A DNA stretch of 64,000 bases. Source: Candidatus Limnocylindrales bacterium. Lineage in GTDB: Bacteria > Chloroflexota > Limnocylindria > Limnocylindrales > CSP1-4. The number at the start of each line of letters is the position of its first letter. The first letter of the stretch is position 1. The notes below the pieces were generated by a model, which ran no database searches, was not told where the DNA came from, and saw only the letters and a program-made list of their open reading frames with translations. The position numbers were made by a program, and so were the translations under genes. Below, piece after piece: positions 59,585 to 64,000 of this stretch. The stretch spans positions 299 through 64,298 of the forward strand of contig DASSPX010000132.1 of NCBI GenBank assembly GCA_035699445.1. Direction: 5' to 3'.

Positions 59585-60583
59585 TCAGGACGAGGGCGCC
59601 CGCTCCGGGTGAGTCACGGACGCCGGTCGCGGGCCGGCGACCCGCTCGCGGGCCGGGGCAGCCGCCGGCTGAGGCGCGGGCAGCCGGCCGCGGGCCCTGA
59701 CGATGAGCGCCACCGCGACCACGATCACCGCCGCCGCCACGACCGTCCGGGGCGTGATCGGCTCGGCGAGGAACAGGGCGCCGAGGATCACCGCCACGAT
59801 CGGGTTCACGTACGTGTACGTGGACACGCGCGACAGCGGGGCGTGGCGGATGAGCCACGCGTAGGTCGTGTAGCCGACCAGGCTGCCGATGAGCGCGAGG
59901 TACGCGAAGGCGATGAGGGACCGCGCCGAGACGGTCGCCGGGTCGAACGTCGCCGCCTCGCCGTTCACGAGGGCGACGACGGCCGCGACGAGACCACCGC
60001 CGATCATCTGGTACGCCGTCGCGAGCAGCGGCGGGTTGGGAAGTGACGCTCGACGGGCGGAGTAGAGGGAGCCGAGCGACCAGCCGATCGGCGCGATGAC
60101 GATTGCAGCCAGCCCGAAGGGATCGAGCGACCCGGTCCCGCCCGTGGGCCAGGCGAGGATGGCCACGCCCAGGATGCCGATGACGATGCCGAGGATGACG
60201 GTGCGCGGCAGGCGATCGCCGAGGAGCGCCCGGCCGAACACGGCGAGCCAGGCGGGCATCAACGCGACGAGCACCGCCGCGATCCCCGACGGCACCGTCT
60301 GCTCGCCGACGCCGACGAGCGCGTTCCCCACCGCGACGAGGCCGGTGCCGACGATCAGGCTGTCCACCAGCTGGCGTCGCGTCGGGCGGGCGATCGCGCC
60401 ACGCTCCCGGACGAACACGATCGCGGCCAGCAGCACGCCCGCGGCGAGGAACCGGATCGCGACCATGACATACGGCGGGATCGTCTCGATCACGACCGCG
60501 ATGCCGAGGTACGTCGTGCCCCAGACGATGTAGAGCGTGATCATCCCCGCCCAGATGGCGAGGGAGCTGGGGCCGGGACGCAT
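59585..60583 (-). CDS. EamA/DMT-family transporter
   Basis: 332 aa, 10-TM pattern. LYIVWGTTYLGIAV. AAGGAG precedes the ATG. Confidence 0.9.
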   Translation of the reverse strand: MRPGPSSLAIWAGMITLYIVWGTTYLGIAVVIETIPPYVMVAIRFLAAGVLLAAIVFVRERGAIARPTRRQLVDSLIVGTGLVAVGNALVGVGEQTVPSGIAAVLVALMPAWLAVFGRALLGDRLPRTVILGIVIGILGVAILAWPTGGTGSLDPFGLAAIVIAPIGWSLGSLYSARRASLPNPPLLATAYQMIGGGLVAAVVALVNGEAATFDPATVSARSLIAFAYLALIGSLVGYTTYAWLIRHAPLSRVSTYTYVNPIVAVILGALFLAEPITPRTVVAAAVIVVAVALIVRARGRLPAPQPAAAPARERVAGPRPASVTHPERAPSS

Positions 60584-60603
60584 AGGAGCTCCTTGGATCA
60601 GTC

Positions 60604-60658
60604 GGCTAGGCCAAGTTTGCCCGATGGTACCGGACGATGCGCTAGCTGGCTAGGCCAA
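60604..60658. repeat. Two copies of GGCTAGGCCAA, 44 bp apart, in the relatively AT-rich EamA upstream region
   Basis: Exact 11-mers at 60604-60614 and 60648-60658. Confidence 0.5.
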
Positions 60659-60712
60659 ATCCGCGGAAATTGGCCGGATTCGAGCCGTGACGGGTGCGGC
60701 GGGTGCGCCGGG

Positions 60713-61522
60713 TCAGGCGGCAAGGGCGAGGGCTGTCGGCCGGCACACCTTGCACGGCCGGTAGCCCGATGCCAGCGCGTCGGCGAGCGACCGGAACGGC
60801 CGCCGATGCTTCGCCAGCATCCGTCGCCCGGTGCGGCACGTCGGCCAGCACACGATCCGGGTCGTGGCTGATCCGACGAGTCGCTCGCCGCGACGGGCAG
60901 CCGCCTCGAGCGCGCCCGGGTCGAGGCCCTCGGCGGCGAGGATCGTGCGCTTGTTCTCCGGCCCGCCCAGCGAGTACTGGCCGATCGTGCCGTCGGTGCG
61001 GACGACCCGGTGACAGGGAACGATCAGCGGCACCGGGTTGTGCCCCAGGGCCGTCCCGACCGCCCGGACGGCCTTCGGCCGGCCGATCTCCGCCGCGACC
61101 CAGCCGTACGGCCGGACCTCGCCGCGTGGGATCTCGAGCGCCTTGAGCCAGACCGCCTGCTCGAACTCGGTGTGGCCGCGCAGGTCGAGCGGAACCCTCG
61201 CGCGGCGGTCGCCTGCCAGCCGGCGCTCGATGGCCAGCCGCAGCGCATCGGGCAGGGCACCGGGGCCGGCCGGCCGGCCGGTGCGGGCGGCATGCCGGGC
61301 GGCGAACGCCTCGGCCGACGGCGCCGCCTCCACGGCAGCCACGCCACGCCCGTTCCAGGCGACCCACAGCCGGCCGATCGGCGACTCGATGGCCGCGAAC
61401 TGGTCGTGGAGCCCGACCTCGACGAGCACGCGCTCGGCGAGCCCGGCCGGCGCCGGGGCGCGGAGCCGTGCCAGCGCGCCGGGCCGGTCGTCGGTGAGCG
61501 AGGCGAGGATGGAGGGGGTCAT
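60713..61522 (-). CDS. Methylated-DNA-protein-cysteine methyltransferase (MGMT/Ogt) fused to a C-terminal Ada-type zinc-binding domain
   Basis: The ATG at 61522 overlaps the sigma-factor stop (ATGA). MGMT N-domain ESPIGRLWVAWNGRGV. Active site NPVPLIVPCHRVV. C-terminus TTRIVCWPTCRTG...FRSLADALASGYRPCKVCRP matches the Ada N-terminal Zn (Cys4) domain pattern. Confidence 0.85.
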   Translation of the reverse strand: MTPSILASLTDDRPGALARLRAPAPAGLAERVLVEVGLHDQFAAIESPIGRLWVAWNGRGVAAVEAAPSAEAFAARHAARTGRPAGPGALPDALRLAIERRLAGDRRARVPLDLRGHTEFEQAVWLKALEIPRGEVRPYGWVAAEIGRPKAVRAVGTALGHNPVPLIVPCHRVVRTDGTIGQYSLGGPENKRTILAAEGLDPGALEAAARRGERLVGSATTRIVCWPTCRTGRRMLAKHRRPFRSLADALASGYRPCKVCRPTALALAA

Positions 61523-62097
61523 GCGATGCGCTCCTCGAGCTCCGCGGCGCTGAGCGCCGTCCGGAGCATCGCCAGGCCACGGTGGACCTGGGCCTTGATG
61601 GTTCCCTCGGGGCGGCCGAGCACCTCGACGAGCTCGGCGTACGACAGCTCGTCGACATGCCGGAGGACGACCGGCAGCCGGTACCGCTCGGGCAGTGCCA
61701 GGACCGCGCGTGCAAGCCGGTCCTGCTCGGTCCGCCGCGCCGCGAGCGCGTGCGGATCCGTGCCCGGGCCGGCCGCGGGCTCGCGACCGGTCTCGACGAG
61801 CGGCTCGAGCGGCTTCGGCTCGATCCGCCGGCCGCGCAGCCGGTTGCGGCTCAGGTTCGCGACGATCGTCGCCAGCCAGCCGCGTACCTGGAGGGCCTGG
61901 ATTCGATCCGGCTCGTACCGCTCGAGGGCCCGATAGGCTCGCACGAGGGCGTCCTGCGCGACCTCCTCGGCCTCGCGCGGATCGCCCAGCATCCGGAGCG
62001 CGATCGCGTAGCAGCGATCGAGATGACCCCGCACCAGCGCCTCGAACGAGCCGTCGAGATCGTGGGCGAGCCGTCGCGCGAGTTCCGTGTCGTCCAT
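61519..62097 (-). CDS. ECF-type sigma-70 family sigma factor
   Basis: ATG 62097, 192 aa. Region 2 EEVAQDALVRAYRAL...RGWLATIVANLSRNRLR. Region 4 LSYAELVEVLGRPEGTIKAQVHRGLAMLR. Confidence 0.85.
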   Translation of the reverse strand: MDDTELARRLAHDLDGSFEALVRGHLDRCYAIALRMLGDPREAEEVAQDALVRAYRALERYEPDRIQALQVRGWLATIVANLSRNRLRGRRIEPKPLEPLVETGREPAAGPGTDPHALAARRTEQDRLARAVLALPERYRLPVVLRHVDELSYAELVEVLGRPEGTIKAQVHRGLAMLRTALSAAELEERIA

Positions 62098-62219
62098 CAA
62101 CCGGGGAACACCTTCCGGCTGCCGACCGTTGCATCGCCTCCCGGTCGTCGCCGCGGTGCCACCGTAGCGCACCCGGGCAAGGGTCCCGGCATCCCGATCG
62201 GCGCATGTACGATCGCGAC

Positions 62220-63230
62220 ATGTCGGTGGACGAGCGGTTCGAGGATCTCGTCGCGTCGCTGGGCGGCTTCTACCGGACCTGGTTCATCCACGTCGGGCTC
62301 GAGACCGGCCTCCTGCGGGCGCTCGACGACGCGGGCGACGCGGGCCTCACGGTCGACGAGCTGGCCGCCCGGACGGGAACCGATGGACGCGTCGTCGGGG
62401 AGTGGGCCTGGGGCGCGGAGGCGCACGGGCTCGTGGAGCGGGACGACGGCCGGTTGCGGCGGATCGCCGAGCTCGCCCCGGTGCTCCTCGAGCCGGATCG
62501 TCCCGAATACCTCGGCGGCCAGTTCGAGCTGGCGGCGATCGCGAGCCTCGATTACGCGGGTCTCGCCGACTTCGTGCGCACCGGCCGCCCGATCGAGGCG
62601 CGGCCGGACCGCTACCGCCGGGCGATCGAGCGCCTGACCGTCCAGGACATCGCGGTGTTCTTCAGCGAGGTCCTGGCGGCGCTCCCGCAGCTCGTGGCCG
62701 ACCTTCGGCCGGGCTCGCGGATCCTCGACGTCCACTGCGGTGGAGGCCGCTGGCTGATCGCCATGGCCCGTCGCTTCCCGGGCACGGAGCTGACGGGCGT
62801 GGAGTTCGAGGCGGACTCCGTGGAGCGGGCCCGGAGCAACGTCGCCGAGGCGGGCCTGACCGACCGGATCACGATCGAGCACCGCGAGCCGACGCAGATC
62901 GAGCCCTCCGGTTCGATCGACCTGGCCTACTTCCAGTACGCGCTCCACCAGCTCCCGGACGCGCCGGCGGCGCTGCGCAGCGCCTGGGGGGCGCTGCGCC
63001 CGGGTGGCCGCCTGATCGTGCTCGACTGGTACCTGCCCACCGACCCGGAGGCGTTCCGCTCACGCCACGGCGAGCTGATCGCCGGCGTGCACCTCGACGA
63101 GCTCTACGGCGGAATGGGTCTGGTGACCGAGCAGGAAGCGGCGGGCTGGTTCGATGTGGCCGGGATCGGCGAGCGTGCGGTGATCGACCTGCCGTCGGGC
63201 GCGACCGCGATCGTCGCCGAGCGCGTCTGA
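62220..63230 (+). CDS. SAM-dependent methyltransferase with N-terminal winged-helix (O-methyltransferase-like architecture)
   Basis: MSVDERFEDLVASLGGFY...LTVDELAARTG..., motif I ILDVHCGGGRW, post-I LTGVEFEADSV. An alternative ATG is at 62205. Confidence 0.8.
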   Translation: MSVDERFEDLVASLGGFYRTWFIHVGLETGLLRALDDAGDAGLTVDELAARTGTDGRVVGEWAWGAEAHGLVERDDGRLRRIAELAPVLLEPDRPEYLGGQFELAAIASLDYAGLADFVRTGRPIEARPDRYRRAIERLTVQDIAVFFSEVLAALPQLVADLRPGSRILDVHCGGGRWLIAMARRFPGTELTGVEFEADSVERARSNVAEAGLTDRITIEHREPTQIEPSGSIDLAYFQYALHQLPDAPAALRSAWGALRPGGRLIVLDWYLPTDPEAFRSRHGELIAGVHLDELYGGMGLVTEQEAAGWFDVAGIGERAVIDLPSGATAIVAERV

Positions 63231-63241
63231 CCCGACCGGCG

Positions 63242-63673
63242 TCAGCCGACCTCGACCGTCCCCTTCATGTTCGGGTGGAGGGCGCAGTGGTAGGCGTACG
63301 TCCCGGGCGCGTTGAAGCGGAGGGTGCCCGCCTCGCCCCGGCCGAACTGGCCGGTGTCGCATGAGCCATCGTCGAGGGTCACGGTGTGCGGCGCGGAGTC
63401 GGCGTTCGTCCAGGTGATCGCGTCACCCACGGACGCGGTCACCGGATCGGGCGAGAACGCGAACTCGGCCGCCTGGGCCTGGACGGTGCCGGCCTCCTCG
63501 ACGACCTCGCATGCCGCGCCGCCTGCGCCCTCGGACGCCGGGGGCGCCTCGCTGGCCGGCGCCTGGCTTGCCGGGGCTTCGCTGACCGGAGCAGCCGTGG
63601 CGCCGGTGCCGCCGCAGGCCGCGAGCGCGAGCGTGAGCATGACGCCGACTGCGGCGGTGGTGAGCGTTCGCAT
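63242..63673 (-). CDS. Cupredoxin (amicyanin/pseudoazurin-like blue copper) lipoprotein
   Basis: ATG 63673 is preceded by GGAGG. Lipobox LTLALAACG. Type-1 Cu ligands: APHTV...YHCALHPNM. Confidence 0.85.
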   Translation of the reverse strand: MRTLTTAAVGVMLTLALAACGGTGATAAPVSEAPASQAPASEAPPASEGAGGAACEVVEEAGTVQAQAAEFAFSPDPVTASVGDAITWTNADSAPHTVTLDDGSCDTGQFGRGEAGTLRFNAPGTYAYHCALHPNMKGTVEVG

Positions 63674-63847
63674 TGGCGAAACCTCCTGTGGGACGGCCCC
63701 GGGCCGATCTCGCAGCGGTCGCCGGGTTCGCTTCGAGTCGTCGCGATCCCGACCGCGTCCGTGGGCGCCATGGTGCGCCGTGCGTTCGTGCGACCATACG
63801 CCGCGCGTCGGACCGGTGGTTTTTGGGCCGGCGGCTGGAGTGTCCGG

Positions 63848-64000
63848 GTGTCCACGTCGATCGAGCTTCCCATCGCCGTCGTCCGCGCCCTCGAGCGGCA
63901 CGAGACCCAGGCGCACGCGATCGGCGGGCGCGAGCTGGTCGATCAGGGCGACGCGCTCGTCCTCATCGACCCGGCCGATCCCGACCCGTTCTGGAACCGC
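63848..64000 (+). CDS. 5' end of a gene running off the right edge (possibly GNAT-like; unassigned)
   Basis: GTG 63848 follows GGAG. Reads VSTSIELPIAVVRALERHETQAHAIGGRELVDQGDALVLIDPADPDPFWNR with high GC3. Too short to classify. Confidence 0.3.
   Translation, partial: MSTSIELPIAVVRALERHETQAHAIGGRELVDQGDALVLIDPADPDPFWNR

Follow-up and report, generated by a model that had tools for sequence, protein, structure and literature searches.

We analysed a 64,000-nt stretch of contig DASSPX010000132.1 (the window) from a soil Chloroflexota bacterium of the Limnocylindria, whose own genome is a metagenome-assembled genome (MAG) of 2.84 Mb, ~80% complete. The window encodes an extracytoplasmic function (ECF) sigma factor and, overlapping its stop codon, a partner protein that combines an O6-alkylguanine transferase (MGMT) with a C-terminal Ada-type zinc domain (MGMT-AdaZn) and stands where an anti-sigma factor is normally encoded. 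Profile comparisons showed that the N-terminal segment of this partner descends from a zinc-binding anti-sigma (ZAS) domain. We lean, by a little, toward the reading that the partner is a degenerate anti-sigma factor and that alkyl transfer to it frees the sigma factor, which would then re-make the consumed enzyme; both the binding and the signal are what we infer. The comparative case for the repair protein as regulator of the sigma factor is good, though not proven.

What is understood of the adaptive response to alkylation comes mainly from one-component activators of the Ada type. In the pair described here, both methyl-acceptor modules of Ada appear wired to a dedicated ECF sigma factor, and the labels of the bacteria concerned span at least four phyla, namely Chloroflexota, Actinomycetota, Acidobacteriota and Gemmatimonadota (Longimicrobiales). 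The features of the pair in the window are as follows.

61519..62097, minus strand: ECF sigma factor gene, 192 aa, with regions sigma2 and sigma4 only (Pfam, NCBIfam)
60713..61522, minus strand: MGMT-AdaZn protein gene, 269 aa, in the anti-sigma position (translation, Pfam, AlphaFold model, fold matches)
61519..61522, minus strand: ATGA overlap of the sigma stop with the partner start (direct sequence reading)
61403..61522, minus strand: N-terminal extension of the partner, residues 1-40, homologous to the end of helix III and to helix IV of class I (ZAS) anti-sigma domains
61193..61402, minus strand: MGMT N-terminal domain, residues 41-110 (sequence and fold match)
60926..61168, minus strand: MGMT catalytic/DNA-binding domain, residues 119-199, with the Cys170 codon at 61013-61015 (PF01035)
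60737..60889, minus strand: C-terminal Ada-type Zn(Cys)4 domain, residues 212-262, with C225, C229, C257 and C260 (PF02805, fold match)
62107..62133, minus strand: predicted autoregulatory ECF-type promoter, with TGCAAC at 62133-62128, an 18-nt spacer and GTT at 62109-62107

Conservation of the gene pair and its promoter

The plus strand reads TCAT at 61519-61522, which is ATGA on the minus strand; the sigma stop codon TGA occupies 61521-61519 and the partner start codon ATG occupies 61522-61520. Given this stop/start overlap, which the first-pass annotation of the window had read in the same way, the sigma factor and the MGMT-AdaZn protein were shown to be translationally coupled, on what is predicted to be one transcript. 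A 4-nt overlap between the two genes was found in 102 of ~131 sigma-linked loci.

The adjacency that the annotation had proposed to survey turned out to be widely conserved. The nearest loci belong to MAGs that carry the label Candidatus Limnocylindrales/Limnocylindria or Chloroflexia, and the sigma gene lies directly upstream in 79 of the 80 close loci, the sole exception being a contig end. A full-length MGMT-AdaZn gene was present in ~50 of 301 sampled Chloroflexota genomes, and we examined 40 Chloroflexota loci holding 43 such genes. In this sample, every one of the 33 genes with an N-terminal extension (short, ZAS-type or of a third, long type devoid of Cys) directly follows a sigma gene, and none of the nine extension-less genes does (L111 copy 2, L112, L113 copy 2, L114, L116 copy 2 and L119-L122); the remaining locus ends at a contig edge. 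The Chloroflexota lineages compared are kin, and these counts of 33/33 and nine are not independent trials. Strong matches were also found in 33 of 301 sampled Actinomycetota genomes, with the sigma gene directly upstream in all 20 loci examined (19 by tblastn, one by open reading frame (ORF) reading together with a hidden Markov model (HMM)). The divergent sigma genes of L113 and L140 lay beyond the reach of tblastn and were recovered by ORF reading and HMM. Carriers established by exact sequence are Rubrobacter xylanophilus DSM 9941 (WP_011563886.1), R. xylanophilus AA322 and R. indicoceani (WP_119068886.1), as well as MAGs of Acidimicrobiia and Actinomycetota; the presence of the pair in cultured Rubrobacter species opens it to bench work. 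The adjacency of sigma and MGMT-AdaZn genes is far beyond chance, and the partner has the gene order of a class I anti-sigma factor, directly after an ECF sigma gene and co-transcribed with it.

Two Chloroflexota loci vary this arrangement. In L119 and L120 (genomes G122 and G275) the order is an extension-less MGMT-AdaZn gene, an ECF sigma gene, and a plain MGMT gene with a partial extension. By gene order and domain content, an MGMT is again in the predicted anti-sigma place there, and the protein bearing the Ada zinc domain is a separate one. We also considered three apparent sigma-MGMT fusions (P0146, P0206 and P0266) as Rosetta-stone evidence and rejected them; P0146 is a frameshifted read-through with nonsense sequence between its parts.

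The sigma protein matched Sigma70_r2 (E 6e-16) and Sigma70_r4_2 (E 5e-14) in Pfam and the sigma70-ECF superfamily in NCBIfam (81 bits against a cut-off of 42.9), the latter being a general superfamily placement only. Its nearest solved relatives are SigW (5WUQ, E 3e-21) and the SigE and SigH proteins of Mycobacterium tuberculosis, all three of which are sigma factors under ZAS anti-sigma control.

Ahead of the sigma start codon, GCAAC stands at a distance of exactly 36 nt in 70 of 80 close loci and GTT follows at the fixed 18-nt spacing in 77 of 80; the flanking DNA is not conserved. TGCAAC, TGTAAC or TGAAAC with the same geometry was found in other Chloroflexota and in Actinomycetota, in some cases before a normal leader. 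A promoter fixed in this way is what would be expected ahead of an autoregulated ECF sigma factor, and its conservation at one position before the sigma start in two phyla indicates that the operon is autoregulated from the predicted TGCAAC-N18-GTT promoter. In the window, the GTT element ends 9 nt upstream of the sigma ATG, a distance that points to a transcript with no leader or almost none. The geometry resembles that of SigW-type (TGAAAC) and SigR/SigH-type (GGAAT-N18-GTT) promoters. A candidate promoter on the opposite strand (GGAAC-N17-CGTT, pointing toward a divergent methyltransferase gene) was rejected: the distance to the sigma start is fixed, the motif is present where the divergent gene is not, and the TGAAAC variants fit the sigma strand only.

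A scan of the whole genome with a position weight matrix (PWM) returned four sites of at least 11 bits, namely the sigma promoter (22.0 bits), a second strong site (17.6 bits) and two weak sites inside genes. The 17.6-bit site (contig C31:41925-42790, locus L153, outside the window) lies upstream of a gene for an AraC-family regulator (HTH_18), its end 3 nt from the ATG, and a gene for a major facilitator superfamily (MFS) transporter comes next. No orthologue of this regulator was found in 60 genomes of the class, and it therefore remains an unconfirmed, predicted target only. In one relative the motif of the sigma promoter precedes a gene for an EamA transporter, and in two R. xylanophilus genomes it was found ahead of the sigma operon only. 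The sigma regulon thus described looks very small, essentially the operon itself. The first-pass annotation had imagined the sigma factor at the head of an adaptive response to alkylation; PWM and pattern scans of the bacterium's own genome found no further alkylation-repair gene in the predicted regulon.

Domains of the partner protein

The partner had initially been described as a complete MGMT (PCHRV) with a C-terminal Ada-type Cys4 zinc domain, in reverse order to Ada and with the AraC-type helix-turn-helix (HTH) of Ada absent; Pfam searches, alignment to Ada and fold matches bore this out. PF01035 (DNA_binding_1/MGMT) covers residues 119-199 (E 3e-30, 104 bits against a cut-off of 27) and TIGR00589 scores 96.5 bits against 46.4, with the acceptor C170 inside PCHRV. 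From residue 41-42 onward the protein matches the M. tuberculosis Ogt (4BHB) and E. coli C-Ada (1SFE) by sequence. Among 22 diverse relatives, R153, N162, C170, H171, R172 and E198 of the MGMT domain are invariant and Y139 and Y183 are kept in at least 90%; their equivalents in human AGT are R128, N137, C145, H146, R147, E172, Y114 and Y158, respectively. The conserved set thus takes in the Arg finger, the Asn hinge, the Tyr residues and the Glu of the Glu-His-water-Cys network.

The zinc domain was recognized by PF02805 (Ada_Zn_binding) at residues 212-262 (E 1.5e-9, 38 bits against a cut-off of 23). Aligned to residues 26-75 of N-Ada, C225, C229, C257 and C260 of the partner fall on C38, C42, C69 and C72 of E. 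coli Ada. The ligand spacing is Cys-X3-Cys...Cys-X2-Cys, all four cysteines are invariant among the 22 relatives, and the basic residues beside the ligands are present. The full N-Ada10 fold was not found in the partner, which lacks Ada residues 1-25 (N-terminal helix and strand) and matches Pfam profile positions 15-64 of 65. This is the only Ada_Zn domain that we found in the bacterium's own genome. No AraC-type HTH was detected in the partner by the Pfam scan (neither HTH_18 nor HTH_AraC), and its score against the NCBIfam Ada equivalog was 111 bits, below the cut-off of 345.

An AlphaFold model of the partner built from 30 sequences had a predicted local distance difference test score (pLDDT) of 89.6 and a predicted template modelling score (pTM) of 0.83. 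Foldseek recovered the two-domain MGMT fold, matching the model to C-Ada (1SFE, E 4e-12, TM 0.78) and to 4WX9 (TM 0.77), and also to the M. tuberculosis Ogt; the zinc domain of the model superposed on that of methylated N-Ada (1U8B) over 51 columns with a root-mean-square deviation of 1.9 Å. Residue by residue, the alignments showed the partner to hold a complete predicted O6-alkylguanine transferase site (C170) and a complete predicted Ada Zn(Cys)4 site (C225).

The N-terminal extension ahead of these domains carries the motif L17-x2-L20-x3-A24-P25-x2-L28-x3-V32-L33-x3-G37-L38-x-D40. Its origin became apparent from relatives drawn from a search of 1.84 billion representative proteins, some full-length members of which reach ~300 aa. 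Pfam assigns to three of these long forms (P0153, P0155 and P0189) an N-terminal zf-HC2 domain (PF13490, the ZAS motif), then MGMT, then Ada_Zn, and the Chloroflexota locus L111 also bears a ZAS-type (zf-HC2) extension. Twelve long-form N-termini share an invariant Cys-...-His-x3-Cys-x2-Cys (C3, H29, C33 and C36), and their profile matches RsiW (5WUQ, E 7e-6, full length), RslA (3HUG), DdvA and ChrR. P0155, whose gene overlaps an ECF sigma gene directly upstream, matched 1,524 protein clusters at E <= 1e-10, many of them with a precomputed PF13490 match. The source labels of these P0155-like long forms include Acidobacteriota, Longimicrobiales and Chloroflexota. The P0155-like proteins are annotated solely as methyltransferases, as is the case throughout public annotation, where the anti-sigma domain has been missed.

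The short form found in the window aligns with the end of this domain. Its residues ~10-39 fall after the CxxC of the long forms, on the end of helix III and on the 'AP-x2-L-x3-V' helix, which reads 'APADFTANVMAKL' in RsiW. A profile of 27 short-form N-termini matched the last 30 columns of the ZAS profile in hhalign with a probability of 89% (E 2e-6; query columns 5-35 against template columns 47-76), and the full-length alignment agrees. In 43 sigma-linked proteins, non-redundant at 70% identity, residues 14-40 are conserved at 0.45, against 0.44 for the MGMT N-domain, and L17, L20, A24, P25, L28 and D40 reach 0.72-0.91. The model of the partner has a helix at residues 28-35, with low confidence at residues 1-20.

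The partner as a candidate regulator of the sigma factor

That the partner sits in the place of an anti-sigma factor was the starting point of the first-pass annotation. The position itself stood, and it is joined by the ZAS-bearing relatives, the retained end of the domain and the co-occurrence of extension and sigma gene; a canonical ZAS domain with HxxxCxxC was not found.

In an undamaged cell, the partner would keep the sigma factor inactive through the remnant helix and possibly other surfaces. Irreversible transfer of an alkyl group from O6-alkylguanine to C170, from a methylphosphotriester to C225, or both, would alter or destabilize the partner, and the freed sigma factor would transcribe its own operon. 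The output of the operon would replace the used-up, single-use enzyme, and fresh partner would silence the sigma factor again once the damage is cleared. We see an even chance that this suicide repair enzyme doubles as an anti-sigma factor in the strict sense, such that one alkyl group accepted by Cys170 or by Cys225 of the zinc site equals one inhibitor spent and one sigma factor freed. Lesions would then be counted stoichiometrically, and the system would be an Ada-independent adaptive response that arose by fusion of ZAS, MGMT and Ada zinc domains, with the anti-sigma domain since pared down to a single helix in this lineage.

The main output of the module would be the repair protein, to which the operons of other lineages add AlkA, AlkB or a second MGMT. 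An AlkB gene follows the pair in L086 and L087, and AlkA follows it in L092 and L093. Three Chloroflexota loci (L111, L113 and L116) encode the sigma factor, an extension-bearing MGMT-AdaZn protein, an extension-less MGMT-AdaZn paralogue and AlkA, a four-gene cluster that, by analogy, resembles the ada regulon gathered into one operon.

Like E. coli Ada, the partner holds both suicide acceptor modules complete, and the logic of irreversible self-methylation as a signal is likely shared. Ada consists of the N-Ada Zn(Cys)4 domain, AraC-type HTHs and the C-Ada MGMT; unlike Ada, the partner has the reverse domain order, no AraC HTH and none of the first ~25 residues of N-Ada, and its output would run through a dedicated ECF sigma factor rather than through direct DNA binding. 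The other point of reference is the class I ZAS pairs (SigW-RsiW, SigL-RslA, sigmaE-ChrR and SigR-RsrA), with which the window pair shares the order of sigma gene then partner gene, the overlap and the autoregulated promoter. The likeness is closest for SigW-RsiW of Bacillus subtilis, SigW being the nearest solved relative of the sigma factor and RsiW that of the long-form N-terminal domain. RsiW, however, is a membrane protein released by proteolysis, whereas the partner is a cytoplasmic protein that would sense through a DNA-repair enzyme. In contrast to the class I pairs generally, the window partner keeps only the final part of the anti-sigma domain, without HxxxCxxC.

Although the first-pass annotation took the pairing to be new, the sigma/MGMT neighbourhood is on record as group ECF122 in the classification of Casas-Pastor et al. 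(2021), as reported in a review (PMC8999054). In that review, 6-O-methylguanine DNA methyltransferases are given as conserved neighbours and possible regulators of ECF122, the mechanism is given as unknown, and the model sigma factor is WP_057211282.1 of Cellulomonas sp. Root930. The window pair fits this description (an ECF sigma factor with a conserved MGMT neighbour and without a canonical anti-sigma factor), the match being one to the description and not to a group model, and is a further member of a catalogued but uncharacterized kind. It differs in coming from Chloroflexota (Limnocylindria) and not from Actinomycetota, and the review text makes no mention of an Ada zinc domain, an anti-sigma remnant or ZAS relatives (PMC8999054). 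Our literature searches found no experimental work on the sigma/MGMT-AdaZn pair. If the partner is indeed an anti-sigma factor, it would be the first with an enzymatic, irreversible DNA-repair event as its signal, and ECF122 would gain a testable mechanism.

Several observations weigh against an anti-sigma role. The window partner gave no zf-HC2 match in Pfam and has no Cys in residues 1-40, where H39 is the only His; lacking helices I-III and HxxxCxxC, it does not have a canonical anti-sigma domain. Helix 28-35, modelled at high confidence, may pack on the MGMT N-domain and not on the sigma factor. The only other strong promoter match in the ~80%-complete genome precedes no repair gene, and AlkB was not found in that genome. 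The review text on ECF122 lists the group among sigma factors without an anti-sigma factor (PMC8999054).

In a rival arrangement, the activity of the autoregulated sigma factor is set elsewhere, by its own transcription or by an unlinked regulator, and the partner is co-expressed cargo, a bifunctional repair enzyme whose N-terminus is vestigial or structural. We consider this unlikely, though it deserves serious weight. It would account for the missing domain core and ZAS motif, for a helix modelled confidently as part of the monomer, and for the filing of ECF122 without an anti-sigma factor in the review (PMC8999054); with both catalytic sites intact, repair alone could account for selection. 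On the other hand, positive autoregulation calls for a brake on the sigma factor, and nothing else encoded nearby is a candidate for one. The 4-nt coupling is kept across two phyla, the N-terminal segment is as conserved as the N-domain of the enzyme and found only with a sigma gene upstream, and relatives bear a full ZAS domain at the same place, all of which fit cargo poorly.

Two further possibilities keep the partner as a regulator and change its mode of action. Methylated E. coli Ada activates transcription through contacts to region 4 of sigma70 and to the C-terminal domain of the alpha subunit, and the partner could likewise be a positive regulator, with methylation of the Zn-bound Cys225 giving it DNA affinity and allowing it to aid RNA polymerase carrying this sigma factor. 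The complete Ada zinc domain with basic residues beside its ligands, and the non-specific helix-turn-helix of the MGMT domain itself, are in keeping with such a co-activator. We nevertheless find it improbable to a high degree, given that the partner has no sequence-specific HTH, that no conserved upstream site was seen beyond the -35 and -10 elements, and that the ancestry of its N-terminus is an inhibitory anti-sigma domain.

It also seems very doubtful to us that the signal is a direct hit of soluble electrophiles or oxidants on a zinc-thiolate cluster, RsrA-like, here the Ada-type cluster and in the long forms the ZAS cluster as well. In its favour, thiol-reactive compounds are known to act on ZAS factors, RsrA among them, the long forms carry two zinc-thiolate sites, and the xxAAC-N18-GTT geometry resembles that of SigR/SigH-type promoters. 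Against this stand the invariance of all MGMT catalytic residues, among them the Arg finger and the Tyr that contact DNA, the recurrence of AlkA and AlkB in the operons of other lineages, and the short form, which lost the ZAS cluster and retained the pairing.

Neighbouring genes and minor observations

The genes flanking the pair in the window are as follows.

59585..60583, minus strand: EamA-family transporter (Pfam EamA), a downstream neighbour not firmly part of the unit
62220-63230, plus strand: divergent SAM-dependent methyltransferase (Methyltransf_25/31/23), kept in 76 of 81 close loci and not beyond the family

Downstream neighbours were assigned by targeted tblastn, as longest-ORF picks were mostly spurious in this GC-rich DNA. 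The EamA gene is found in 73 of 81 close loci and not beyond the close family. No terminator was found between the MGMT-AdaZn and EamA genes. Their spacer (60584-60712, minus strand), in the window as in L001-L091, contains a conserved, palindrome-like motif with the look of an operator, TTGG(A/C)C(C/T)A...(C)TA(T/G)(G/C)CCAA, whose symmetry is imperfect, beside a TACACT/TATGCT box, and the EamA gene probably has a regulated promoter/operator of its own, judging from these elements. An 11-mer duplicated in the spacer corresponds to two copies of the left half of the palindrome. On the other side of the pair, TGTACGAT, similar to an extended -10 box, stands ahead of the ATG of the divergent methyltransferase gene, and the transcript looks leaderless.

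Elsewhere in the bacterium's own genome, a plain Ogt (contig C64:9582-9845, locus L082) has PCHRV, no Ada zinc domain and no sigma gene as neighbour. It adjoins a gene for a heavy-metal P-type ATPase and is likely the housekeeping alkyltransferase.

Two minor observations concern other sequences. The ORF at 63242-63916 (minus strand), which ends in ...HCALHPNMKGTVEVG and begins with a signal- or lipoprotein-like stretch, has the look of a small blue-copper (cupredoxin) protein. In the 3.48-Mb chromosome of one Actinomycetota genome (G463), the short repeat TGCAACCC(G/A)CC...AACGA(C/T)CGGTT occurs at least 18 times (e.g., at 1036166-1036557), with 183 nt between some of the copies.

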